This document shows, one piece after another, positions 5,466 through 33,011 of a stretch of 64,000 bases of DNA. The notes beneath the pieces were generated by a model, which was not told the origin of the DNA, searched no databases, and worked only from the letters and a program-made list of their open reading frames with translations. The stretch is taken from positions 77,012 through 141,011 of the forward strand of contig JASDVF010000050.1 in assembly GCA_041440805.1 (NCBI GenBank), in the 5' to 3' direction. The position numbers and the translations under genes were made by a program. The DNA comes from Myxococcota bacterium. GTDB lineage: Bacteria; Myxococcota_A; UBA9160; UBA4427. Each line of letters begins with the position of its first letter. The first letter of the stretch is position 1.

Positions 5466-6365
5466 CTAGCTCTCAGTAGAGCCTTCCATCGCCCGCCGAA
5501 GAGCCGGGTAGTCCTCGCATCCCGTCGCCGGAGTCACGATTTCGTTCCATCGCGACGTCCACGCCTCTCGAACGGCCGGCGTCATCTCGGCCCGGGGTCC
5601 CAAGGTTTTTCCCTCGCGAACCTTCGTGCTGCCTGCACCTTCGGGCAGGTTCATCGCGGAGTTGCGGTGCCTCTTAAGAAGGACATCCTCCCAGAGCGTC
5701 GGGTACCCCTTCATGAAATCGAGCTCGGCTTGGCGCGTCGCAAGTTCGATTCTCTCTTCATCACGAGCAAGATCCAAGAAATCGCTCACTCGTCTGACCG
5801 CAACAGTAAGATTCTCAACCACCGTCTCGTAACAAAGTGGAAGCACCTCGGGATCGTCCTTGTGCGCCCACCACGAGACGAGATGGTCCCAATAGTGATG
5901 CCGGCCATCGCGGGACAGAACGAAGTCCAGCGCGAACTCTTCGAACCCAATACTGCCGGGTTCAAAGAACCAGCCCGAAAAGAAGTGGTAGTGCGAGACG
6001 ATCACGGATTCAGGATCTCGGACAACCCAAATCGCGCGGCCTCCCTTAGGCAAAGCACCCCAGTCGAGATGGGTCTTGAAGGCACGCGGCTCGGCGCGCT
6101 GTGCAGCCGTCGCATCGATCCCTGTATCGACGGCCAACTCGATCCAAGGAACGACTTCCGAGATGTCTTCGAAGTCCATATCACCCCCCGTGCGCAGCCC
6201 ATGCACGATCTGCTGCAAGAGCGTCGTTCCGCTTTTCGCGAAGGTGGCTATGAACACATCCGTCGGCCGCGGCTGAAACGAAAGCCCCGCGAGCATGCCC
6301 TCACGCGTTGCGAAGCCCGCGAGTGCTTTCAGGAGTCCATCTACTGTTGTCGGTAAGCGGTACAT
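5466..6365 (-). CDS. PAPS-dependent sulfotransferase (Sulfotransfer_1-like)
   Basis: 5'-PSB-like motif TFAKSGTTLLQQIV and 3'-PB-like motif RDPESVIVSHYHF. Confidence 0.8.
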   Translation of the reverse strand: MYRLPTTVDGLLKALAGFATREGMLAGLSFQPRPTDVFIATFAKSGTTLLQQIVHGLRTGGDMDFEDISEVVPWIELAVDTGIDATAAQRAEPRAFKTHLDWGALPKGGRAIWVVRDPESVIVSHYHFFSGWFFEPGSIGFEEFALDFVLSRDGRHHYWDHLVSWWAHKDDPEVLPLCYETVVENLTVAVRRVSDFLDLARDEERIELATRQAELDFMKGYPTLWEDVLLKRHRNSAMNLPEGAGSTKVREGKTLGPRAEMTPAVREAWTSRWNEIVTPATGCEDYPALRRAMEGSTES

Positions 6366-6401: not shown

Positions 6402-7763
6402 TCAGTGGAACTCGATGCTGTCGGGAAGCGCCGATCCTGTAGCTTGATCGGCCAGAGGCTCGATCATGAAATAGGGGCGTTCAAAGACACTCCGGTCGCC
6501 ATTAGGCGCGAAGGTCGACGAGAAGGAACGAAAGACGAGGCCCTCAACGATCCCCTGGGCCAGATGCGGCGAGTAGCTGTTATTGAAAAGAATGTCGCCA
6601 GGCATGCTCTCATGCTGTTCGCCATCGACTCCGTAGATTACAGGGCCGCTTAACACATAGTAGAATTCGGGAATCACGTGACTATGCTCGACATAGGTCG
6701 ACCGCGCGCCCCACGCAGATTCAGAGAAGTTAAAATCCCAACGCCCATCGGGCCGGCTTGCTCGGAAGATCGCCTTGTGACGCGCGATCTGAATCATCTG
6801 CTCCGCGACTTCCAAGAGCGAGCCAAGATCATCCGAGAAAAAGAATCCGCCCTCCTTTAGAGTCTCGGCCGAAAGCCAAGAAATTTTGCTGTCGTGCCCA
6901 AATACGGAAACGCCGGGATAGAGCGGCTCATCCACATTGAAGGCCGCTTTCGCTGCGCGAAGACCGAAGGCCGCATCAGCGTATACCGGAACCGCTGCCG
7001 AAGGCGTGGAGTTCACAGCAGCCTCGACCGGACCATAGGCCTCGTCCACTCCGCCCCAGAAAAGATAGCCGTCTTCGAATTTCGCCTGCTCGGGCTGAAC
7101 ATGCTGATTCGCGCCTGTTAGGTAGTAGCCGGCATCAATATACGACTGGTCGCCTCCCGGAGCCCAACGGATCCACAACAAACGAAGAGGTTCCTCCGCC
7201 GAGGCTTCCAAACTTCGCACGACATAAGGCTCGAGCTTCACTGTAGATCCCGTCGTCACGCGAGCGTTTTCGTTCCCGACACGAATCTCTCCGCGTCCCG
7301 AGATCACGATATACGCACCCGGCGCACCATCGGCATGCCCCGGTAGGACGGCCTCTGGTCCAAGCACCAGCTGACTGATTTTGAGATCGGGATGATCGAA
7401 GGCCAGCCGCAAACGCATCGCGCCTTTAAGCTGCTCGACACGGTCCGGTGTCGACTCTCGAAGCCCGTCCCAATCGATTGGGAACAGATTTTCCAGATCG
7501 CCCCATGGCGTTCCCGTCGTTTGATGACGCGCGCCGTAGCGCGGAAGGGGCCGCGGCGAATCAGGATCAGCCATGTCGCGTTCGCGGCGCTCCCTGAATT
7601 CCGCGTACTTGTAGCCGTAGGGGTCATTTGGGTCATCGATCGCTGTGTAGATCGCGGGGTCCACTTCATCGGCCGCGACCCCCGCCGACATCTCAGCCTC
7701 GTCGCCAGGCTGACCGAGCATCGCGCAGCCTCCGAGAAGAAACAGAAGCGATCCGGAAGCCAT
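6402..7763 (-). CDS. Bicupin-domain lipoprotein, unknown substrate
   Basis: Lipobox LLFLLGGC directly after ATG 7763; the listed start 7859 is an alternative. Two cupin-like barrels (GHADGAPGAYIVISGRGEIRV; HSHVIPEFYYVLSGPVIYGVDGE). Confidence 0.6.
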   Translation of the reverse strand: MASGSLLFLLGGCAMLGQPGDEAEMSAGVAADEVDPAIYTAIDDPNDPYGYKYAEFRERRERDMADPDSPRPLPRYGARHQTTGTPWGDLENLFPIDWDGLRESTPDRVEQLKGAMRLRLAFDHPDLKISQLVLGPEAVLPGHADGAPGAYIVISGRGEIRVGNENARVTTGSTVKLEPYVVRSLEASAEEPLRLLWIRWAPGGDQSYIDAGYYLTGANQHVQPEQAKFEDGYLFWGGVDEAYGPVEAAVNSTPSAAVPVYADAAFGLRAAKAAFNVDEPLYPGVSVFGHDSKISWLSAETLKEGGFFFSDDLGSLLEVAEQMIQIARHKAIFRASRPDGRWDFNFSESAWGARSTYVEHSHVIPEFYYVLSGPVIYGVDGEQHESMPGDILFNNSYSPHLAQGIVEGLVFRSFSSTFAPNGDRSVFERPYFMIEPLADQATGSALPDSIEFH

Positions 7764-7942
7764 AAAGTTCGGAAATCGGCTCGTAAACGAAGTTAATGAG
7801 ATCACTAGGGCCCCGGCACCGCGGGATGCGGTCTTCGCGTCGCATCGTCGCACGAGCATCCTCTTATGTCATGCCACGACTCCCAATCCGGTACCGCTGG
7901 TCAGCTTCGCCATTTTGTGGAAAGGTCATTGATGGAGGGCCT

Positions 7943-8944
7943 ATGTCATCGACCGCACTCGCTGCACCCAGCCATAGCTACCGCAGCGAAGAAGATCTCC
8001 AAGAGCAGTACCACGCACAGGGTTGGACCGACGGTCTCCCGATCGTCGCCCCTACGCCGGATCGCGTCGAAGCCTTCCTCGCGGAAGCGGGCCTGGCCCC
8101 AGATCTCCTCCTGGGTGAAGTCCCAACCCGCGAAGTTCGGGTCACGGCTGAACACGCCGCCATCAATGCAGTGATGGCGGGTTGCCGCCCCGAATATTTC
8201 CCCGTCGTCGTGGCCGCCCTTCGCGCGCACCTCCACGAGAAGGGCAACTGCCATAGCACGACCGGCACGCTATCCGGCGCAGTACAGACCGTGTTAGTCA
8301 ATGGCCCCATTAGAACAAGAATTGGCATCGAATGCGGTGCTGGATGCATGGGCCCGGGCTTCCGCGCCAACGCCACAATCGGACGCGCACTCCGCCTCGT
8401 GATTCGCAACGTGTGTCGCGCCATCCCCGGTGTACTGGACCGCGCAAGTTTCTCGAGTCCCCATCGCTTCAGCTTCTGTTTTGGTGAGAACGAAGAAGAG
8501 AGCAACTGGACGCCTCTCCACGTCGAACGTGGCTATCAGCTTGCTCAGAGCACAGTCACTGTTCACTCCGTCATGACCGTGACTTCCACGATCGACTTCA
8601 CCTCGCGCACCCCGGAAGCCCTGCTCGATTCGATGCTCCACACTCTTAGACAAAACGGAATTGCAGGGGACGATTTCGTCGGCGACGACGCCAACGTGAT
8701 GCTCGTCGTCGGCCCCGAACATCGCCGCTATTTCGACCGCGCCGGTTGGTCCAAGGAAGACATGCGCGACTACCTCTTCCCCCGGTTCGCAGAAGACCCG
8801 GGTCCGACTGGACGAATCGTCGGGCTCCCGCGCAAGGACGGAATTCTGATTGCTGCAGCCGGCGGCGACGGCATGGCTCAGACTTGGGTGTTGTTGCCGC
8901 ATCTCGCTGTCGCCATAACAGAAGCGATCGACGTACCGAACTAA
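7943..8944 (+). CDS. Uncharacterised conserved protein, partner of UGSC selenoprotein (copy 1)
   Basis: 333 codons from ATG 7943, with GGAGG 5-9 nt upstream. Paralog of 31294-32415, sharing the blocks GW(T/G)DGLP(I/L)V.PT..RVEAFL, A(I/V)NAVMAGCRP, GPG(F/C)RANA..GRALRLV and GPEH. No family name recognised. Confidence 0.7.
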   Translation: MSSTALAAPSHSYRSEEDLQEQYHAQGWTDGLPIVAPTPDRVEAFLAEAGLAPDLLLGEVPTREVRVTAEHAAINAVMAGCRPEYFPVVVAALRAHLHEKGNCHSTTGTLSGAVQTVLVNGPIRTRIGIECGAGCMGPGFRANATIGRALRLVIRNVCRAIPGVLDRASFSSPHRFSFCFGENEEESNWTPLHVERGYQLAQSTVTVHSVMTVTSTIDFTSRTPEALLDSMLHTLRQNGIAGDDFVGDDANVMLVVGPEHRRYFDRAGWSKEDMRDYLFPRFAEDPGPTGRIVGLPRKDGILIAAAGGDGMAQTWVLLPHLAVAITEAIDVPN

Positions 8945-9005
8945 TACGCACATCAGCCGCCGCCGGAAAGCCAATATTCCCGTCAACTTCATGAAGGAAT
9001 TAGCC

Positions 9006-9554
9006 ATGGACGAAAAAACACTGATCGCCCTCGATCCTACGAGCGGCCCCCTTGAGCGCAAAGACGATCGGGCGCTTCCCGCCCGCGTCGCTTCGCTTTC
9101 GGGGCATGTACTCGGCCTCGTGGCCAATGGACTCGGTGAATCCAAGTCCTTCCTGGACGCCGTGTACGGGGAGCTCACGAGCGCAGACGACACCCTCGCC
9201 GCGGTGCGTGTCCTAAAGCCGAGTGTCTCCGTCGCGCCGGAGCGACCGGATTGGGCTCGGCTCACCTCGGAGACCTCGCTGGCGATTGCCGGCTTCGGGG
9301 GTTGAGGCAGCTGCTCTGCGCGCAGTTTGCGCGACGCGATCGAGCTCGAGTGGGCGGGAATTCCGACCGCCGCCATCATCCACAAAGCCGTCGAGGGCTC
9401 TGCCCAAGCGATGGCTCGACTATCGGGAGTGCCCGATTTCGAGTTCATCCTGATCGACTACCCGGCCATCCCGACGGCCATCTGGAATCAAGATGAAATT
9501 CGCGATCTGGCACGAGAGGTCGCTCCCAAAGTGCGTGCCCGTCTGACGAGCTGA
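9006..9554 (+). CDS. UGSC-motif selenoprotein (copy 1); TGA 9303-9305 read as selenocysteine (residue 100 of 182)
   Basis: Listed ORFs 8991-9305 and 9327-9554 are in the same frame, separated only by TGA plus 7 sense codons. Read-through gives ..GFGG-U-GSCSARSLRD... The paralog at 32484-33011 has TGA at the homologous column in the same U-G-S-C context. A SECIS-like hairpin lies downstream. AAGGA is 6 nt upstream of ATG 9006. Confidence 0.8.
9319..9333 (+). promoter_or_regulatory. SECIS-like recoding hairpin for UGA 9303-9305
   Basis: CGCGCA-GUU-UGCGCG: a 5-6 bp GC-rich stem with G-U in the apical loop, starting 13 nt after the UGA. Confidence 0.6.
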
Positions 9555-9612: not shown

Positions 9613-9858
9613 ATGTCAGAAGCCGTGCAACAAGTTGTCGAGCAATTCAACGAGATCGTTAAACCCGATGGCGGACAGGTTCGTCTCTGCGAATTCGACA
9701 GCGGCGTGCTGCGCGTGAGCTATCGACCTGGCGTGAACGAAGAATGCGCGGAGTGCGTAATGGAGCCGGAAGCACTCGGCGCCATGATGCATGACATGCT
9801 CAAAGGACTGAGCGACGACGTATTGCGCGTCGAAGTCGAAACTGAAAAGGAATCATGA
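9613..9858 (+). CDS. NifU/Nfu-like small CxxC protein
   Basis: 81 aa. The pattern ..VKPDGGQVRL..FDSGVLRVSY....CAEC......LGAMMHDML resembles the NifU C-terminal (Nfu) domain with one CxxC pair. AGGAAGAG precedes the ATG. Confidence 0.65.
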   Translation: MSEAVQQVVEQFNEIVKPDGGQVRLCEFDSGVLRVSYRPGVNEECAECVMEPEALGAMMHDMLKGLSDDVLRVEVETEKES

Positions 9859-10652
9859 TGCCGATCCCATCTCCGACCATCGATCTCACCGACCGCGTCG
9901 CGCTCGTCACAGGAGCGGCCTCCGGTATTGGCCGTGCGGCCGCGCGCCGTTATGCCGAAGCGGGAGCCCGCGTCATGTGCGCGGACATCGACGCCGACGG
10001 CGCAAAGCAAACAAGCGAGTCGATTCTTGCCGATGGCGGGAACGCCGCCTCCCTAGGACTCGACGTGACCGACGAAAGCGCGGTCGAGAAGAGCCTCACA
10101 CAAACCATCGACGCCCTCGGTGGGTTCGACATCCTCTTCAATAATGCGGGCGTCGGCGGCGGCGACTATCAACAGACCATCGAAGTCAATCAGAACGGCG
10201 TCTACTACGGCCTCAAGCACGGAGCGGCTCTCTTAGCGGAGCGTGGCGGAGGTGCGATCGTCAACACCGCCTCGATCGCCGGCTTACAGGGCCTCGTCTC
10301 ACCCCTTTCCGACCATTCAGGAGGCGGACCCGCTTCTATGACCGAAGGCGGGGGCATCGCTTATGTCGCCTCAAAGCATGCTGTCGTCGGCATGACGGCT
10401 CAGTTCGCGATTTCGTACGCCAAGCTTGGCGTTCGCGTAAACGCCGTCGCCCCCGGCTATATCGAAACGCCTATGACCTCATTGTTGCGCGAGGATCTGC
10501 AGGTCCAGCACGAATACGAGCAGCTCCATCCGATGGGGCGTCTCGGCCAAGCGGATGAAATCGCAACGGCAGCGGTATTCCTATCGAGCGATGCCGCATC
10601 CTTCATCACGGGACACACGCTTCCCGTCGACGGCGGGTACTCGTGCCGTTAG
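9855..10652 (+). CDS. SDR family oxidoreductase
   Basis: TGAASGIGRA Rossmann motif and YxxxK (YVASKHAV). ATG 9855 overlaps the stop of the upstream gene (ATGA). Confidence 0.85.
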   Translation: MMPIPSPTIDLTDRVALVTGAASGIGRAAARRYAEAGARVMCADIDADGAKQTSESILADGGNAASLGLDVTDESAVEKSLTQTIDALGGFDILFNNAGVGGGDYQQTIEVNQNGVYYGLKHGAALLAERGGGAIVNTASIAGLQGLVSPLSDHSGGGPASMTEGGGIAYVASKHAVVGMTAQFAISYAKLGVRVNAVAPGYIETPMTSLLREDLQVQHEYEQLHPMGRLGQADEIATAAVFLSSDAASFITGHTLPVDGGYSCR

Positions 10653-14092: not shown

Positions 14093-15907
14093 ATGGACGC
14101 CAGGACCTTCGGACGCGACATCGCTCATATCAATCTCTCCGCGGGAACCGTCGAGAATCGGCCCGCCCCGCCTGAGTGGGTTGAGAAATATATCGGCGCA
14201 CGCGGGCTCGGTGTACGTTATGTCCTCGAGAACGGCCCCAACGTCGAGCCGCTCTCCCCGGAAAATATTCTCTGCTTCATGAACGGCCCGCTCTCCGGAA
14301 GCGAGATGAGCATGAGTGGCCGATGGGCCGCGGTCACCAAGAGTCCGCTCACGAATACAGTGACGGATAGCCATCAGGGTGGCTGGAGCGCGGCGCGGGT
14401 CCGCTGGGCTGGATTCGATGGCCTCATTTTTGAAGGTCGAGCCGATGCACCCGTCTATGTGTTCATCGAAGACGGCGAAATTTCGATTCGTGATGCCAGT
14501 GACACCTGGGGCATGGGCATTCATGAAACTGTTGCCTTCTATCAGGAGCGCTACGGGAAAAAGAATCTCTCCGTCAACGCCATAGGTCAGGCCGGCGAAA
14601 ATCTCTCCCGCTTCGCCGTTTGGGTCAACGAAGATGATCGCGCCTTCGGTCGCGGCGGCACCGGTGCCGTCGGTGGCAGCAAGAACCTCAAGGCGATCAT
14701 CGTTCGCGCAGCCAACAAGAAGAGCGATGTCCCGGACAAAGATGCCTGGCAGGCCGCTCGAAAATTGGCACTCAACACAATCCGCGACGAGAAAAATATC
14801 ACGAGCCCCAAAAAAGGCGGGCTTTCGGTCTACGGCACGAATGTGCTCATGAACGTAACGAATAGTATCGGCGCGTTAGGCGTCCGAAATAGCCAGCTCA
14901 CTTCTTTCGGCGAGCGCGCAGAGTCCCTCTCCGGCGAGTACGTCGAGGAAAATATTCTTGTAGGAAACCCGACGTGTCACGCCTGCCCCGTCGCCTGCAA
15001 GAAGGAAGTCGAAATCAAGGACGGCCCGTGGAAGGGCCTGAAGATGGAAAGTGTCGAATACGAGCCGGCCTGGGCGCTGGGCTCGAATTGCGACGTCGAC
15101 GATATTCGCTCGGTCGCGAAGCTGATCGATCAATGCAACGACTACGGCCTCGACCCGATCGAACTCGGCAATGTCTACTCCGTCTTCATGGAATGCACCG
15201 AAGAAGGCCTAACGAACGGGGAATCTCTCGCTTGGGGCGACGATGCGGCTATGGTGGCGCTGACTGAAAAACTCGCGCTCCGAGAAGGCATCGGGGACAA
15301 GCTCGCGGACGGGGCCGTCATCACGGCTCAGAATTTCGGACGTCCCGAAGCGGCGATGGCCTGCAAGGGCCAAGCGGTCGCGGCCTATGATCCGCGGGGA
15401 CTCAAGGGTATGGGACTGGGTTATGCGACGAGTAATCGCGGCGCCTGCCATCTGCGGGCGTATGTCGCGGCGGCGGAACTCGGGGTGATCGGCATCGAAG
15501 CGGACCCGCTTGAATGGAGAGGCAAAGGAGAACTAGTCATGACCTTCCAGGATCTCGCAGCCTTCTCCGACAGCCTAGACCTCTGCAAGTTCAGCGCATT
15601 CGCGCAGGGCGCGGACGAGTATGCCGCTCAGTGGAGCGGCGCCATGGGGATTGAGTGCACCGCCGAAGACGTCATGAAGGCGGGGGAGCGCGTCTACAAT
15701 CTCGAGCGCTACTACAACAACTTGGCTGGCTTCGGCGAAGGCAGCGACACCTTGCCAAAGCGCTTCACCGAGGAAGCTTCGACGCTCTCCGGCTCCAAGG
15801 GCCATGTTTCGGAGCTCGACCAGATGCTCGTCGAGTACTACGACGTCCGCGGCTGGAAGAACGGCGTCGTTCCCCAGGCGAAACTCGATGAGCTTCAAAT
15901 TCCCTAA
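14093..15907 (+). CDS. aor: Aldehyde:ferredoxin oxidoreductase family (tungsto-/molybdopterin enzyme)
   Basis: 604 aa from ATG 14093. 4Fe-4S ligand motif CHACPVAC plus a distal Cys in GLGYATSNRGACHLR, and a pterin-binding-type DSLDLCKF motif. The N-terminal MDARTFGRDIAHINLSAGTVE is typical of AOR. Confidence 0.9.
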   Translation: MDARTFGRDIAHINLSAGTVENRPAPPEWVEKYIGARGLGVRYVLENGPNVEPLSPENILCFMNGPLSGSEMSMSGRWAAVTKSPLTNTVTDSHQGGWSAARVRWAGFDGLIFEGRADAPVYVFIEDGEISIRDASDTWGMGIHETVAFYQERYGKKNLSVNAIGQAGENLSRFAVWVNEDDRAFGRGGTGAVGGSKNLKAIIVRAANKKSDVPDKDAWQAARKLALNTIRDEKNITSPKKGGLSVYGTNVLMNVTNSIGALGVRNSQLTSFGERAESLSGEYVEENILVGNPTCHACPVACKKEVEIKDGPWKGLKMESVEYEPAWALGSNCDVDDIRSVAKLIDQCNDYGLDPIELGNVYSVFMECTEEGLTNGESLAWGDDAAMVALTEKLALREGIGDKLADGAVITAQNFGRPEAAMACKGQAVAAYDPRGLKGMGLGYATSNRGACHLRAYVAAAELGVIGIEADPLEWRGKGELVMTFQDLAAFSDSLDLCKFSAFAQGADEYAAQWSGAMGIECTAEDVMKAGERVYNLERYYNNLAGFGEGSDTLPKRFTEEASTLSGSKGHVSELDQMLVEYYDVRGWKNGVVPQAKLDELQIP

Positions 15908-15922
15908 CGTCGTCGCGATCGC

Positions 15923-16201
15923 CTAACCACCTGCGACAGCGGGGAAGAACTCGATCGTACGGGATGCGTCGACTTGGGTCGCCATTCCATCCGGAAGAAA
16001 CTTCGAACTACGCCCATCCACAAAAAGATGGATGTAGCGGTCGAGCTTTCCATCCTCGTCGAGGACCTCTTCTCGCAGGTCTGGATAGGCTGCGACCACA
16101 GCCTCGAGAATCTGCTCAAGCGTGCACGTTTCGGGTAAATCGATCTCGACATGTTTCTGTCCGACGATTTTTCGGAGCGTCGCGTAGAAGCTGATCCGCA
16201 T
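15923..16201 (-). CDS. MoaD/ThiS-family beta-grasp protein with C-terminal Gly-Gly
   Basis: 92 aa ending ..IEFFPAVAGG, with MoaD-like sequence. Start at ATG 16201 (alternative 16222). The listed 163-aa ORF has an implausible N-terminal extension. Confidence 0.7.
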   Translation of the reverse strand: MRISFYATLRKIVGQKHVEIDLPETCTLEQILEAVVAAYPDLREEVLDEDGKLDRYIHLFVDGRSSKFLPDGMATQVDASRTIEFFPAVAGG

Positions 16202-16258
16202 CGAGGAAGTGTAGAGTCTCATCCGAGAGCAAGCGAACCCCAGCACACAGGAGCTCCT

Positions 16259-17110
16259 ATGAAGGTCGGTATGAATCTTTTCCTCTGGACCGATGACCCG
16301 GTCGATGAGGCCCATCTGCCGCTCTACGCTCGTTTGAAGGATATGGGCTTCGATGGCATCGAGTTGCCGATCTTCAATCCGGATCCAGAGAAATTCGCGC
16401 AGCTCGGCGCACAACTAGACAACCTCGGACTCGAGCGAACCGCGATCACCATCTGCAATCCCGAGAACGATCCAATTTCCCCAGACGCCTCCATCCGGAA
16501 AGCTGCGAGCGAGCGACTCGAGCGCGTCGTCGACAGCTGCGAAGCCGTCGGATCCTCGCTCCTTGGCGGGCCACTTTACGCCGCGATCGGGCAATTCAGT
16601 GGCGCCGGCGCAACGGAAGCTGAATGGGAGCGCAGCCTCTCCGTGATACGCGGCGTCGCCGATTACGCTGCCCGCGCGAACATTAAGCTGAGTTTCGAAT
16701 TCCTCAATCGATTCGAGATCTATCTGCTCAATTCAACCGAAGACACCGCTAAGTACGTGAAGGAGTTGGACCGGCCTAACGTCGGGATCCACTATGACAC
16801 GTTCCACGCCCACATCGAAGAAAAAGATTCACCCCACGCAATCCGCGCTCATGCGGACGCGATCACACACGTACACATTTCAGAGAATGATCGAAGTACC
16901 CCCGGGCGTGGCCAGGTTGCCTGGGACAGCACCTTCGACGCCCTCGCCCAGAGCGGCTACGACGGCTGGCTGACCATCGAAGCATTTGGCGGCACCCTGC
17001 CCTCCCTGGCCGCTGCGACCAAAATTTGGCGTAAGATGTTCGAAGACGAAGAGACGCTTGCCCGCGAGGGCCACGATTTCATTCGCCGCGAATGGGCGAA
17101 GCGCACCTGA
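16259..17110 (+). CDS. Sugar phosphate isomerase/epimerase (xylose-isomerase-like TIM barrel)
   Basis: MKVGMNLFLW.., FEFLNRFE and HVHISENDR..PGRG motifs. CAGGAG precedes ATG 16259. Confidence 0.85.
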   Translation: MKVGMNLFLWTDDPVDEAHLPLYARLKDMGFDGIELPIFNPDPEKFAQLGAQLDNLGLERTAITICNPENDPISPDASIRKAASERLERVVDSCEAVGSSLLGGPLYAAIGQFSGAGATEAEWERSLSVIRGVADYAARANIKLSFEFLNRFEIYLLNSTEDTAKYVKELDRPNVGIHYDTFHAHIEEKDSPHAIRAHADAITHVHISENDRSTPGRGQVAWDSTFDALAQSGYDGWLTIEAFGGTLPSLAAATKIWRKMFEDEETLAREGHDFIRREWAKRT

Positions 17111-17197: not shown

Positions 17198-18400
17198 ATG
17201 TCCGGCTTCATCCGAAAAGCGCCCGTTGGCTCTGCCGTGTCCGAGCTCGACTTCTACGGGCAGCCTGCCGTCGACACGCCCCATCTCGCGTACCGCGAAC
17301 TCTTAGATGCCGGGCCCGTCGTCTGGCTTCCGCGCCACAAAGTGCTCGCAGTCGCCCGCTTTGCCCCCCTCCGCGCGATGCTCAAAGCGGACAAGGACTT
17401 TGTTAGTTCACAGGGCGTGACTATGAATCCGATCTTCAACTGGGCTGCGAAAAAATCGGACACCGTGCTCGTAAGCGACGGCGATAAACATGATCGCTTG
17501 CGACGCATACTCATGGCCCCCATGCGCCCCCGCGCCCTCGAGAGCCTGCGCGACAGAATCCGCGAACAAGCACAGGAATGCGTCGATGACGTCGTCGGTC
17601 GCGGAAAATTCGAGGCGATGGAATCCCTGGCCAGCCATCTCCCCGTTTCAATCGTGGCGGATCTCGTGGGACTACCGGACGCCCAGCGAGAAAAAATGAT
17701 CTCGTGGTCGAAGGCGACCTTCAACTTGATCGGACCGATCAATCGACGATCCGTCGGCTCGCTGCCTGCGGTCGCGAACATGTTCAAGGCACAGCGCGGC
17801 CTGGACATCGACCGCGTTCGCCCAGGAACCTGGGCTCATCGCCTCTTCCAGCTGCGAGACGAGGGCGAGATCCGACATAGCGAAGCCCTCGGTATGATGA
17901 TCGACTACATAGCCCCGAGCCTCGATACGACCATCTTCGCGACCGGACATTTGCTTCGCCGCCTCGCCGACCATCCCGATCAATGGCGGATTCTTCGCGA
18001 CGATCCGAGATTGATTCCGAATGCCGTAAATGAATCACTCCGAATCGATTCGGTGATTCGCGCCTTTACGCGAGTCGCGGCACGTGACATCGAATTTGAG
18101 GGGACACCGATTCCAAAGGGACAGCGCATTTTGGCCGTCTACGGCGCGGCGAACCGAGATAACCGTCACTTTGAAAACCCCGACGTTTTCGACATCACCC
18201 GTGATGCGCGAGATCATATGGCCTTTGGGCACGGACCTCACGCTTGTGCCGGAACGCGGCTCGCAAAGGTCGAGATGGAGGCACTCCTCGAGGCCATCCT
18301 CGAGCGGGTCGATCGAATCGACGTTGGCAAGCCCATCATTTCAAACAACAACACGCTTTACGGATTCGATGCACTTCCCGCAGAACTTCATCCCAGTTAG
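17198..18400 (+). CDS. Cytochrome P450
   Basis: Heme loop FGHGPHACAGTRLA and ExxR (ESLRIDS). Confidence 0.9.
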   Translation: MSGFIRKAPVGSAVSELDFYGQPAVDTPHLAYRELLDAGPVVWLPRHKVLAVARFAPLRAMLKADKDFVSSQGVTMNPIFNWAAKKSDTVLVSDGDKHDRLRRILMAPMRPRALESLRDRIREQAQECVDDVVGRGKFEAMESLASHLPVSIVADLVGLPDAQREKMISWSKATFNLIGPINRRSVGSLPAVANMFKAQRGLDIDRVRPGTWAHRLFQLRDEGEIRHSEALGMMIDYIAPSLDTTIFATGHLLRRLADHPDQWRILRDDPRLIPNAVNESLRIDSVIRAFTRVAARDIEFEGTPIPKGQRILAVYGAANRDNRHFENPDVFDITRDARDHMAFGHGPHACAGTRLAKVEMEALLEAILERVDRIDVGKPIISNNNTLYGFDALPAELHPS

Positions 18401-29962: not shown

Positions 29963-31168
29963 ATGAGCGATCCGATCATCGTCATTTCCTCCGACACCCA
30001 CGCCGGCAACTCCGTCGAGGGCTACCGCGAATACCTCGACACAAAACATCAGGCGCTCTTCGACGAATGGCGCGGTTCGTACAAGAACCCGCAGAAGAAG
30101 CACATAGGATCCAAGAAGCACAAGAACTGGGACGATGCCGAGCGCATGGGCGACATGCAGACCGAAGGCGTCGTCGGCGAGATCGTCTTCCCGAATACGG
30201 TTCCGCCCTTCTTCCGCTCGAGCGTGCTCATCTGCGGCAACCCCCGCCCCGAAGACTATTTGATGCGCCTCGAAGGTATTCGCGCGCATAACAGATGGCT
30301 CAGCGAATGGTGCGGCGAATTCCCAGCCCAGCGCGCCGGCATCGGCCTCGTCTATCTGAACGACATCGACGAAGCGATTAAAGACATCGAGTGGATCGCC
30401 AAGAACAACTTGCGCGGCGGTGTCCTGCTCCCGCACGTTCCCGACGACTGCACGGGCTACATCAAGCCGCTCTATCACCCCGACTACGACCCTATGTGGG
30501 CACTTCTCGAAGAGACGGGCCTCGTCGTGAATCACCACGGCGGCACGGGCTCCCCAGACTACGGACGCCTCCCCGTCTCCCTTCCGATTCGACTGATCGA
30601 AACCGGCTTCTTCTCAACCCGAAGCTATAGCCAGCTACTTCTGTCCGGCGTCTTCCACCGCTTCCCGAAGCTCAAGTACATCATCACCGAGTCCGGATGC
30701 GCCTGGGTACCGGAAACCCTGCAGCGCCTCGACATGGCCTGGAAGCGCATCTCTTCAGGCGCGGTCGGCGAGTTCCAGTTCGCGGAGGGTGTCACGACGC
30801 CCGAGCCGCCGAGCTTCTACGCAAAGCAGAACTGCTACTACGGTGCGAGTTCGGCCTCCCCGCCGGAGCTCAAGGATCGCGACGTGATCGGCACAGAGCG
30901 TATTCTCTGGGGCAGCGATTATCCCCACTACGAAGGCACCTACCCCGATACCCGCTTGGCGTTGCGGCACACGTTCAACACGTGCGGCGAGGACGATACG
31001 CGGGCGATGCTCGGGCTGAATGCCGCCAAGCTCTACGATTTCGATCTCGAAGCCCTCAAGCCAATCTCGGATAAGTGCGGACCGACTTGGGACGAACTGA
31101 GCGTGCCGCTCGCGCCCGAAGAGTTTCCCACGGACACCCACACGAACGCGTTCCGCACACTCGACTGA
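29963..31168 (+). CDS. Amidohydrolase-2 (ACMSD-like metal-dependent hydrolase/decarboxylase)
   Basis: VISSDTHAG metal motif near the N-terminus and ILWGSDYPHYEG near the C-terminus. Start at ATG 29963. Confidence 0.85.
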   Translation: MSDPIIVISSDTHAGNSVEGYREYLDTKHQALFDEWRGSYKNPQKKHIGSKKHKNWDDAERMGDMQTEGVVGEIVFPNTVPPFFRSSVLICGNPRPEDYLMRLEGIRAHNRWLSEWCGEFPAQRAGIGLVYLNDIDEAIKDIEWIAKNNLRGGVLLPHVPDDCTGYIKPLYHPDYDPMWALLEETGLVVNHHGGTGSPDYGRLPVSLPIRLIETGFFSTRSYSQLLLSGVFHRFPKLKYIITESGCAWVPETLQRLDMAWKRISSGAVGEFQFAEGVTTPEPPSFYAKQNCYYGASSASPPELKDRDVIGTERILWGSDYPHYEGTYPDTRLALRHTFNTCGEDDTRAMLGLNAAKLYDFDLEALKPISDKCGPTWDELSVPLAPEEFPTDTHTNAFRTLD

Positions 31169-31293: not shown

Positions 31294-32415
31294 ATGGCCG
31301 ATTCGGGCGAAATCGAATGTGAAGACGATGTTTGCGCCCTTCCGGGTGCGACCCTCGAATCCTTCGAATCGGCGCGGGTCTCGCCGGACGTTAAAATTCC
31401 CGAAGGTGATTTCGAGGCGTGGATGGATCTCGCCGACACACGCGGCTGGGGGGACGGCCTTCCGCTCGTGCCTCCGACCGAGGCTCGGGTCGAAGCCTTC
31501 CTCGAAAAGCTGCCCCGTCAGATTGATCCTGATGCAGTCGTCGCAGTCCTGCCGCCCCGCGGCGGACTCGTCACGCGACGACTCCTCGCAGTCAACGCCG
31601 TAATGGCTGGCTGTCGCCCCAACATGCTCCCAGTTCTCACGACCGCCGTCCGCGGACTCGCCTTCCCGGAAATCAATCTTCGCGGCATCAACGCGACGAC
31701 TCATCCGGTGGCTCCCCTCATCCTGGTTCATGGCGCCGCGACGGACGAGCTCGGCTTCAATGCCGGGCTAGGCGCCTTCGGCCCCGGCTGTCGCGCGAAT
31801 GCCTCCGTCGGCCGAGCTCTTAGACTCGTCCTCATGAACATCGCGGGCGCGCGCCCAGGAGCCGGCGATGCCGCAACTCAAGGACAGCCCTCGAAATACA
31901 GCTACTGCGCCGCCGAGAATTGCGCCGAGAGCCCCTGGGAAAGCTATCCGGAAAGCCTCGGCCTTCGAGCCCCGAGCGCTGTCACCGTCGCTTGCGGTGA
32001 GAATCCGCATAACGTCCAGGATCACGATGTTCGCTCGCCAATTCATACGCTCGAGCAAATCGCGAGCACGATGCTGACCCTGGGCTCGAATAACGCTCCG
32101 GTCTCGAGTGCCGAATGGTTCGTTTTTCTCGGCCCCGAGCACGCCGAGGCAATCGCAGCCGACGGCTTTTCACGAAAAGACGTGCAGGATTTCCTCTTCG
32201 AAAATGCGCGGCTTCCCATGTCGCGATTCCGGCGCGCCTTCGAAGTCACTCAATACGCTGAATGGGAAGACGCGCTCCCGGATGACGGTATGAAGCCGAT
32301 CATGCGCGATCGCGACCTCATCAAAGTGATGGTCGTAGGCGGCGCTGGAAAACACTCTTGCGTAGTGCCGAGCTGGGGCATGACCGAAAGCGCCACACTG
32401 CCCCTAGAGCCCTAA
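31294..32415 (+). CDS. Uncharacterised conserved protein, partner of UGSC selenoprotein (copy 2)
   Basis: 373 codons from ATG 31294, with AAGGAG 6 nt upstream. Paralog of 7943-8944 (GWGDGLPLVPPTEARVEAFL, AVNAVMAGCRP, GPGCRANASVGRALRLV, GPEHA). Confidence 0.7.
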   Translation: MADSGEIECEDDVCALPGATLESFESARVSPDVKIPEGDFEAWMDLADTRGWGDGLPLVPPTEARVEAFLEKLPRQIDPDAVVAVLPPRGGLVTRRLLAVNAVMAGCRPNMLPVLTTAVRGLAFPEINLRGINATTHPVAPLILVHGAATDELGFNAGLGAFGPGCRANASVGRALRLVLMNIAGARPGAGDAATQGQPSKYSYCAAENCAESPWESYPESLGLRAPSAVTVACGENPHNVQDHDVRSPIHTLEQIASTMLTLGSNNAPVSSAEWFVFLGPEHAEAIAADGFSRKDVQDFLFENARLPMSRFRRAFEVTQYAEWEDALPDDGMKPIMRDRDLIKVMVVGGAGKHSCVVPSWGMTESATLPLEP

Positions 32416-32483
32416 AAGGGCGCTACATCCTCCCCGTCCCGGGCACCGGCACCCGGCGCGTGGGCGAAGAAAGAGACCAAAGC

Positions 32484-33011
32484 ATGTCGTCGACCTTGAT
32501 CTACTCTCCCGAGGGACATACGGACGCACTCCTCGAACGCACACCGCGAACCTCTATCAAAAAGCTCGCAGGTCTTCGCATTGGCGTCCTCGACAACGGC
32601 AAGGCAGGCGCGGATCACCTGCTAGGCAGGATGGGCGCAGAGCTCGCAAAGAAGACCGGTGGAATTTACGTTGGCTGCTTCCGCAAGCAGACCGCCGCCA
32701 CGCCCTGTGAGACCGAGCTGATCGATCGCCTCGCCAAGGAAGTCGAGGTCGTCCTCACGGGTACCGCTGATTGAGGGAGCTGCACGTCGTGGAGTCTCCA
32801 CGACACGAAATCCCTTGAAGCCCGAGGCGTCGCCACGGTCGTCGTCGCGAGCGAAGCCTTTCGCGATCTCGCAGATCAGATGGCGAGGGAGCTACTCTTT
32901 CCTGATGCGCGCCGAATCATCGTCCCGCACCCGATCGGCGGCACACCCGGCGCAACCCTGGATGCATGGGCAGACGCGGCACTGGACGCGATCCTCGAAC
33001 AGCTCCGTTAG
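32484..33011 (+). CDS. UGSC-motif selenoprotein (copy 2); TGA 32772-32774 read as selenocysteine (residue 97 of 175)
   Basis: ORF 32358-32774 ends ..LTGTAD at the TGA. The same frame stays open to TAG 33009-33011 and encodes GSCTSWSLHDTKSLEARGVATVVVASEAF...ILEQLR, which is homologous to the C-terminal half of copy 1. That half is absent from the ORF track because it has no Met. A SECIS-like hairpin starts 11 nt after the UGA. Confidence 0.8.
32786..32804 (+). promoter_or_regulatory. SECIS-like recoding hairpin for UGA 32772-32774
   Basis: GUCGUGG-AGUCU-CCACGAC: a perfect 7-bp stem and 5-nt loop containing G-U, with an 11-nt spacer after the UGA. Confidence 0.65.

Follow-up and report, generated by a model that had tools for sequence, protein, structure and literature searches.

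Two genes interrupted by an in-frame TGA

We analysed a stretch of 64,000 nucleotides (nt) from a Myxococcota bacterium (contig JASDVF010000050.1, positions 77,012 to 141,011), hereafter the window, which carries on its plus strand two genes of the UGSC family of (seleno)proteins, each interrupted by a single in-frame TGA that is very probably read as selenocysteine (Sec), and each lying next to a gene of a second family that we call the partner. All positions given below are those of the window. UGSC copy 1 (9006..9554) comprises 182 codons, with Sec at codon 100 (TGA 9303..9305, in the context GFGG-U-GSC) and another TGA, 9552-9554, as its true stop. The upstream open reading frame (ORF; 8991/9006..9305) terminates in ..AIAGFGG-TGA, and a mechanically called ORF resumes in the same frame at TTG 9327, 21 nt beyond the TGA, and runs to 9552-9554. 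This is the break that the initial annotation of the sequence had described, and translation of 9006-9554 reproduces the 182-codon read-through product that it proposed, with a sole internal TGA followed by GSCSARSLRD. The start codon ATG 9006 is also used by a public gene call (locus L117).

The paralogue, UGSC copy 2 (32484..33011), has 175 codons, Sec at codon 97 and a TAG stop; its TGA (32772-32774) stands in the context ..TGTAD-U-GSCTSW, and the UGA together with its hairpin element occupies 32772..32816. The same annotation had pointed to this paralogue as having a TGA in the same U-G-S-C context and a hairpin of its own, and both are there, the hairpin at 32786-32804 being the stronger of the two. 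The two proteins share ~26% identity over a 126-residue local alignment. Public gene callers stop at the TGA in either gene and report products of 99 amino acids (aa) for copy 1 (L117) and 96 aa for copy 2 (L119).

Membership of the UGSC family

When Sec is replaced by Cys, both proteins match the Pfam model PF24696 ('UGSC family'; gathering score 25), copy 1 with 132.7 bits (E 2e-38) over profile positions 3-171 of 172 and copy 2 with 141.3 bits (E 4.3e-41) over nearly the full profile. Copy 2 also passes, with 127.1 bits, the 125-bit equivalog cutoff of the NCBIfam model NF041046 ('UGSC family (seleno)protein'), a name that NCBI gives to some of the homologues. Among 94 distinct members (45 Sec forms and 49 Cys forms) the [U/C]-G-S-C motif is 100% conserved. 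Searching 5.8 billion proteins with copy 1 as the query yielded one class of matches of ~180 aa with GFGG-C-GSC, in which the Sec column is Cys (TGC or TGT), and a closer class (up to 76% identity) of ~100 aa, which end exactly at GFGG, the point at which gene callers meet the TGA and stop; Sec forms predominate overwhelmingly among relatives of copy 1.

The 'UGSC-containing protein' was among the most abundant marine selenoprotein families in the 2008 Global Ocean Sampling (GOS) selenoproteome published in PLoS Genetics, which counted 255 Sec versus 21 Cys homologues, assigned the family to no domain, suggested a 'likely Trx-like fold' for it and noted its fusion to what was named 'Unknown_1' (PMC2398784); a 2026 review keeps it among the uncharacterised families (PMC13188914). 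A family of this name, to which the initial annotation had referred, thus exists in the literature and in two profile collections. The genes studied here resemble the GOS family in that Sec forms exceed Cys forms in the clade of copy 1, in the fusion with an unnamed domain, which may be the partner family described below, and in having no assigned function. They differ in the predicted fold, which is flavodoxin-like here and was 'likely Trx-like' in 2008.

Pfam was searched at E<=10 with 18 UGSC and 20 partner sequences, which brought no additional match, and alignment profiles of UGSC and of the partner found no meaningful match among PDB sequences. Membership in GrdB/PrdB was also considered and rejected, as the GRDB model (PF07355) was not matched in that Pfam search.

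SECIS-like hairpins downstream of the UGA codons

Each UGA is followed by a hairpin resembling a bacterial selenocysteine insertion sequence (SECIS) element; in the numbering used here the U of UGA is position 1. The element of copy 1 occupies 9316..9337, and its core, CGCGCA-GUU-UGCGCG at 9319-9333, lies 13 nt past the UGA and pairs 9319-9324 with 9328-9333 around the loop G9325-U9326-U9327. A possible extension of 3 base pairs (bp) joins 9316-9318 with 9335-9337 and leaves A9334 (A32) bulged; such an extension is common among Sec forms, but without covariation. In copy 2 an upper helix of 8 bp (32786-32793 with 32797-32804; loop G32794-U32795-C32796) stands on a lower helix (32773-32778 with 32811-32816) that includes the UGA; the minimum free energy is -20.7 kcal/mol (z = -3.45), and none of 200 shuffled sequences was as stable. 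One register is common to both copies, with pairs 17-31, 18-30, 19-29, 20-28, 21-27 and 22-26 and the loop G23-U24-N25, to which copy 2 adds pairs 15-33 and 16-32 and the lower helix.

The SECIS element of Escherichia coli comprises nt 15-31 with conserved positions U17, G23 and U24 (PMC8659212). The fdhF reference sequence used for comparison is 100% identical to fdhF in the records listed and at least 99% identical in 5413 of 5420 matching records. As in fdhF, the hairpins of the window lie inside the coding sequence straight after the UGA and have their upper stem-loop within nt 15-33, with G23 and U24 exposed in its apical loop and the 3' arm beginning at U26; the lower helix of copy 2 takes in the UGA as that of fdhF does. 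In contrast to fdhF, neither has a bulged U17, the loop is of 3 nt (5 if the closing A-U pair opens) instead of 4, and the stem of copy 1 begins at +17, or at +14 with the bulged A32. The hairpin that had been proposed at 9319-9333 on the grounds of a SECIS-like position and loop is therefore present, and its G23-U24 register equals that of fdhF.

Conservation of the hairpin was assessed among 26 distinct Sec-form sequences, which are mutually related, so that the counts do not represent independent events. The six core pairs are 99.4% paired, and compensatory changes occur in three of them: 18-30 (G-C 17, C-G 5, A-U 4), 19-29 (C-G 24, U-A 2) and 21-27 (C-G 22, G-C 2, U-A 1). None of 500 shuffles attained the observed pairing or covariation, and pairing fell to 8-77% when the partner columns were slid. 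The changes at 18-30 are synonymous (Ala GCG/GCA/GCC with Arg CGC/CGU/CGG) and therefore reflect selection at the RNA rather than the protein level. Ser in the loop is encoded by AGU in each of 27 distinct Sec forms and by AGC in each of the 27 distinct Cys forms having Ser there, a contrast partly confounded by clade, as the Cys forms come mostly from the clade of copy 2 and the Sec forms mostly from that of copy 1; the genes of the window themselves prefer AGC (AGU:AGC = 55:134). The 39 nt that follow the UGA do not vary among orthologues of copy 2 whose protein identity is no more than 82-88%. The view of the initial annotation that chance is unlikely is borne out by the common register of both copies and by the shuffles, and the conservation of the hairpin in orthologues, on which it had made its proposal depend, is seen in the pairing and covariation of the Sec forms.

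By analogy with fdhF, the hairpin, situated 11-13 nt past the UGA within the coding sequence, would display G23-U24 in its apical loop and recruit SelB carrying Sec-tRNA(Sec); the ribosome would then insert Sec and continue to the real stop, which in copy 1 is another TGA that has no such hairpin. We infer that Sec insertion at the UGA is SelB-dependent. Alternatively, the UGA could be read through without Sec, by near-cognate insertion of Cys or Trp or by suppression, and the hairpin could be a by-product of the conserved peptide or serve to slow the ribosome. Some Cys genes do retain most of the stem, and the conserved codons are partly self-complementary. However, the stem is preserved in Sec forms by compensatory synonymous changes, U24 is fixed only in company with UGA, the geometry equals that of the SelB-binding element of fdhF, and U-x-x-C, with its Sec/Cys pair, is a classical selenoprotein signature (PMC2398784). 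We consider read-through of this kind improbable and prefer decoding as Sec.

Within its sub-clade copy 2 stands out as a Sec form, the other, more distant members detected being Cys forms. In the protein search, Sec-truncated products were found only at >=82% identity, and the hits at <=52% identity, many of them from Acidimicrobiia, were all full-length. We took the Sec/Cys distribution of this clade from the protein search because the metagenome scan for copy 2, one of whose patterns (DCGSCTSW) has Cys at the Sec column, is skewed to Cys forms. The Cys forms of the clade already have 7 of the 8 upper-stem pairs, since the codons for T-S-W...H-D are self-complementary, and a functional G23-U24 hairpin is therefore only ~3 substitutions away. 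A recent switch from Cys to Sec and a Sec ancestor that left relic stems both fit these data.

Coding continuity and the genetic code

Related genome loci were retrieved with search patterns that leave out the Sec column, and TGA stands at this column in all 33 of them. They represent at least four phyla or classes, being labelled as Myxococcota/'Deltaproteobacteria', Dehalococcoidia, Acidimicrobiia, an alphaproteobacterium and some 'Spirochaetaceae' bins, and the best of them, DGPZ01000195.1 ('Deltaproteobacteria bacterium UBA4427'), shares 99% identity with the window. Substitutions on the 3' side of the TGA fall mostly in the third codon position (for example 6/5/35 by position; eight orthologues), and in the six closest orthologues amino acid identity is 0.80-0.90 downstream of the TGA versus 0.76-0.81 upstream. 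The initial annotation had expected homologues to align across the TGA with either Sec or Cys at this column and had named their termination there as the outcome that would speak against it; the full-length homologues with GFGG-C-GSC do align across the column, and the relatives do not end at it, being continuous in the Cys forms and followed by coding-like sequence in the others. One of the 33, a second UGSC copy in a 'Deltaproteobacteria' metagenome-assembled genome (L034, PBFW01000028.1, 4001-4503), looks decaying: it has an extra TGA at a conserved Trp, GNC in place of GSC and a frameshift, and no partner lies upstream of it.

If the TGA were a genuine stop, each locus would consist of two small genes or of a broken (pseudo)gene with an accidental downstream ORF. 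This is how automatic callers treat the genes, ending them at 99 and 96 aa, and no Sec machinery was seen within the 64-kb window. The explanation is nevertheless very hard to reconcile with a TGA column kept in every related locus across several phyla, with a downstream part that is third-position-biased and better conserved than the upstream part, with continuous Cys homologues and a Pfam model spanning both halves, and with the different appearance of the truly decaying copy described above.

The stops of 41 long ORFs in the window are TGA in 14 cases, TAG in 14 and TAA in 13. TGA is thus an ordinary stop, including that of UGSC copy 1 itself at 9552-9554, and we conclude, as the initial annotation did, that the code is standard and the recoding site-specific. 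A reassigned code in which TGA means Trp or Gly everywhere could draw on the two in-frame TGAs and nothing more, and deserves next to no credence given this stop usage and a column that is Cys, not Trp or Gly, in homologues. When the window was scanned for further frames interrupted by TGA, 112 candidates emerged, mostly spurious in this GC-rich DNA, and only the two UGSC sites united a long two-sided frame, a G23-U24 hairpin and homology. Two pairs of same-frame TGA neighbours, 16151-17110 / 17198-18400 (+) and 6402-7859 / 5466-6365 (-), were rejected as selenoprotein candidates and attributed to coincidence, as they had neither a hairpin nor continuity of homology.

Several observations weigh against decoding as Sec. 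Besides the mutual relatedness of the Sec sequences and the clade effect on the Ser codon, the folding energy of the copy 1 hairpin is unexceptional in its GC-rich context (z = +1.9), position 17 is a paired C in 26 of 26 Sec forms, so that the bulged U17 is missing, and part of the stem is favoured by the conserved peptide, the Cys gene of L122 keeping all of it and those of L125 and L126 having lost it. Searched against Rfam, the full window yielded no match at gathering thresholds, and the surroundings of the site no relevant one at E<=10. Against NF041046 copy 1 reaches 87.5 bits (E 8e-25), short of the 125-bit cutoff. No selA, selB or selD was found among the annotated genes, which cover most of the window, and neither selC nor any other tRNA gene was found in its 64 kb. 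Taking all of this together, we put at about 0.9 the probability that the two genes belong to the known UGSC (seleno)protein family and that each has one UGA decoded as selenocysteine.

Both the recoding and the family have been described before, and the finding is a correct re-discovery, which illustrates that genuine selenocysteine recoding can be spotted by reading sequence only. What is worth keeping beyond the known family is the linkage of UGSC to a partner and its fusions, the prediction of a flavodoxin-like fold and the mis-annotation of the UGA.

The partner family

Partner gene 1 (7943..8944, +; 333 aa), confirmed by a gene call in L117, precedes UGSC copy 1 with a gap of 61 nt, and partner gene 2 (31294..32415, +; 373 aa), called in L119, ends 68 nt upstream of copy 2. 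The two are 35% identical and have in common the motifs GW[TG]DGLP[IL]V[AP]PT, NAVMAGC, GPG.RANA..GRALRL and [FY]C..EN, which in partner 1 read GWTDGLPIVAPT, NAVMAGC, GPGFRANATIGRALRL and FCFGENEE. No Pfam or NCBIfam model matched the partner even at E<=10, and a profile search found no sequence relative in PDB. The family is large, numbering at least 7958 members when clustered at 90% identity and 6405 when clustered at 50%, and 1785 of the latter score at E<=1e-30.

The linkage between UGSC and the partner is near-obligate. Of the 33 genome loci, 31 have the partner directly beside UGSC. Of the 80 metagenome loci, 8 have a flank too short on at least one side to judge, and all 72 informative ones have the partner adjacent, downstream of UGSC in 45 cases, upstream in 26 and on both sides in one. 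Cys forms of the copy 1 clade also adjoin it: the stop of UGSC overlaps the start of the partner in L122 and L125, and L126 has partner genes on either side of UGSC. Tandem or flanking duplications of the partner/UGSC module, in which two partners, or two complete pairs, follow one another, were seen in L021 (711-4531), L029 (2-4531), L036 and L126, and tandem partner-partner fusions of ~710-740 aa also occur (P0300, P0308).

Across 88 partner sequences Cys81 and Cys179 are conserved in 97% and 95%, respectively, and N143, R148 and E182 are invariant. The structural model of the partner has a predicted local distance difference test (pLDDT) score of 82.8 and a predicted template modelling (pTM) score of 0.86; a Foldseek search with it gave no match at E<=1e-3, the best being class I fumarate hydratase (E 3e-3, template modelling (TM) score 0.28). 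We also considered the partner as a pyruvoyl proprotein cleaved at an Asn-Cys site (C103) and rejected this, as that Cys is missing in partner 2 and unconserved family-wide.

Gene fusions and truncated gene calls

Fusions of UGSC with the partner occur in both orders and in Sec as well as Cys forms, as seen in a Pfam scan of the best 150 of the 6405 partner representatives. Complete UGSC(Cys)-partner fusions are 553-561 aa long, and a further example of 573 aa is present in L001. Proteins P0317, P0322, P0327 and P0329 (414-443 aa) have in front of the partner only some 60 residues from the end of the UGSC profile and represent Sec-form fusions in which the gene caller began anew past the UGA. 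The opposite order of fusion, cut at the UGA, is seen in P0324, P0328 and P0389 (460-461 aa), where the UGSC profile follows the partner and breaks off at its position 92, which is the Sec column. Public gene calls thus systematically cut UGSC genes at the UGA, fused forms included, by stopping or restarting there, and ENA, Logan and JGI records hold UGSC fragments of 96-104 aa.

Two rare fusions join the partner to other proteins. In P0361 (695 aa) the partner is joined to a complete thioredoxin reductase of the low-molecular-mass type (Pyr_redox_2 at 6e-41, with GSGPAG and CAVCD), and in P0415 to a NifU-like domain with C-x-x-C-[IV]-M-P, a motif also found in the ORF at 9613-9858 of the window. 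These rare fusions suggest an electron relay through thiols or selenols.

Predicted fold of UGSC

The AlphaFold model of a Cys homologue with 61% identity (pLDDT 89.5, pTM 0.84) consists of five parallel beta-alpha units, with the [U/C]GSC motif between strand 3 and helix 3. Foldseek matched it with high probability, though at low TM scores (0.36-0.47), to generic flavodoxin-like domains and to nothing thioredoxin-like. UGSC is therefore predicted to be a flavodoxin-like alpha/beta domain of ~180 aa with U-G-S-C at the start of helix 3. A thioredoxin fold, in which the redox motif follows strand 1, was considered and rejected on the predicted structure, as the motif follows strand 3 in the model and the top matches are flavodoxin-like domains. 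Invariant or near-invariant positions among the 94 distinct members are N41, K71, [U/C]100-G-S-C103, D110, E115 and P153; judging from the order of secondary structures, the conserved residues would line the C-terminal edge of the sheet, a location found in many enzymes that share this architecture. Together with the linkage to the partner and the rare fusions of the latter, this predicted fold offers an experimental handle on an abundant marine family that has no function assigned.

Possible function of the UGSC-partner module

We propose that U100-x-x-C103 would form a selenenylsulfide redox centre and that UGSC could act as a dedicated redox subunit of the adjacent partner of ~330 aa with its two conserved cysteines. 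UGSC would pass to the partner reducing equivalents that come ultimately from a flavoprotein of the thioredoxin-reductase type, and the NifU-like CxxC protein might be an intermediate in this transfer. We hold such a thiol/selenol relay to be an even bet.

In glycine and D-proline reductases the electrons come ultimately from a thioredoxin-type system, and these enzymes offer an analogy for UGSC. As with GrdB/PrdB and GrdE/PrdA, a U-x-x-C selenoprotein is encoded beside a larger subunit that is not a selenoprotein, and the two presumably cooperate. The likeness is one of analogy only: unlike members of the GrdB/PrdB family UGSC does not match GRDB, there is no structural match, and the conserved Cys cleavage site of GrdE/PrdA has no counterpart, Cys103 of the partner being unconserved. 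The thioredoxin/thioredoxin reductase and AhpF-AhpC relays are similar in having a C/U-x-x-C centre at the N-terminus of a helix, and the fusion of the partner to thioredoxin reductase and the small CxxC protein nearby fit this comparison. They differ in that the fold predicted for UGSC is not that of thioredoxin and that the acceptor, the partner, has no known relatives. Two further points count against the relay, namely that the functional proposal is based on predicted structure, synteny and rare fusions, and that thioredoxin-reductase genes are found near UGSC in only 3 of ~125 loci. A Pyr_redox_2 gene in L126 (9760-10719, -) lies 3 kb away from UGSC.

The main functional rival to the relay is an iron-sulfur (Fe-S) enzyme, whose inter-subunit cluster, received from the NifU-like protein, would be coordinated by U100 and C103 of UGSC together with Cys81 and Cys179 of the partner. 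Such a cluster would account for the recurrence of a NifU-like ORF beside the module, once fused to the partner, and for the presence of exactly two highly conserved partner cysteines alongside two candidate ligands in UGSC; moreover, class I fumarate hydratase, the weak best structural match of the partner, is a [4Fe-4S] enzyme. That match, however, is not significant, the NifU-like match in the window is under the Pfam threshold, many loci have no such ORF in the flanks examined, the fusion with thioredoxin reductase points to thiol redox chemistry, and Sec would be unusual as a cluster ligand. We consider the Fe-S enzyme unlikely and favour the thiol/selenol relay.

More tentatively, and with less confidence than in the relay itself, UGSC and the partner may constitute a widespread seleno/thiol enzyme of an undescribed class, made of two subunits or sometimes of a single chain, for which the NifU-like protein and a donor of the thioredoxin-reductase type would be optional. 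If so, the enzyme would include a partner fold without a solved relative and would be hosted by abundant marine and soil lineages (Myxococcota, SAR202-type Dehalococcoidia and Acidimicrobiia), and its neighbourhoods, dominated by amidohydrolases, short-chain dehydrogenases/reductases (SDRs) and oxygenases, would point to the catabolism of organic matter.

Other genes of the neighbourhood

Downstream of UGSC copy 1, and probably in one operon with it, lies a gene for a small NifU-like (Nfu-type) CxxC protein (9613..9858, +; 81 aa, ..NEECAECVMEPE..), which matches PF01106 with 25.5 bits, under the gathering score of 27. An ORF of this kind is found downstream of UGSC in ~15 loci, mostly labelled Myxococcota or deltaproteobacteria and a few otherwise, and directly upstream of UGSC in the distant loci L097, L098, L101 and L116. 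The start of an SDR gene (9855..10652, +; PF13561/PF00106, called in L117) overlaps the stop of the NifU-like gene in the sequence ATGA, and this gene may belong to the UGSC operon as well. A 384-aa ORF on the opposite strand (8294-9448, -) runs antisense to the partner and UGSC genes and is most likely an artefact of GC-rich DNA and no gene.

Directly 5' of partner 2 and UGSC copy 2 (31294-33011) lies an Amidohydro_2 gene (29963-31168), an order kept in the orthologous contigs L119, L120 and L127. Amidohydro_2 and SDR genes are also plentiful around UGSC in L001, which may hint at the pathway served. Farther along the window, a gene of the aldehyde:ferredoxin oxidoreductase type (14093-15907, +; AFOR_N/AFOR_C, tungsten/molybdopterin enzyme family) adjoins a ThiS-like gene (15923-16246, -) and is unusual amid surroundings rich in oxygenases (P450, TauD, Rieske).

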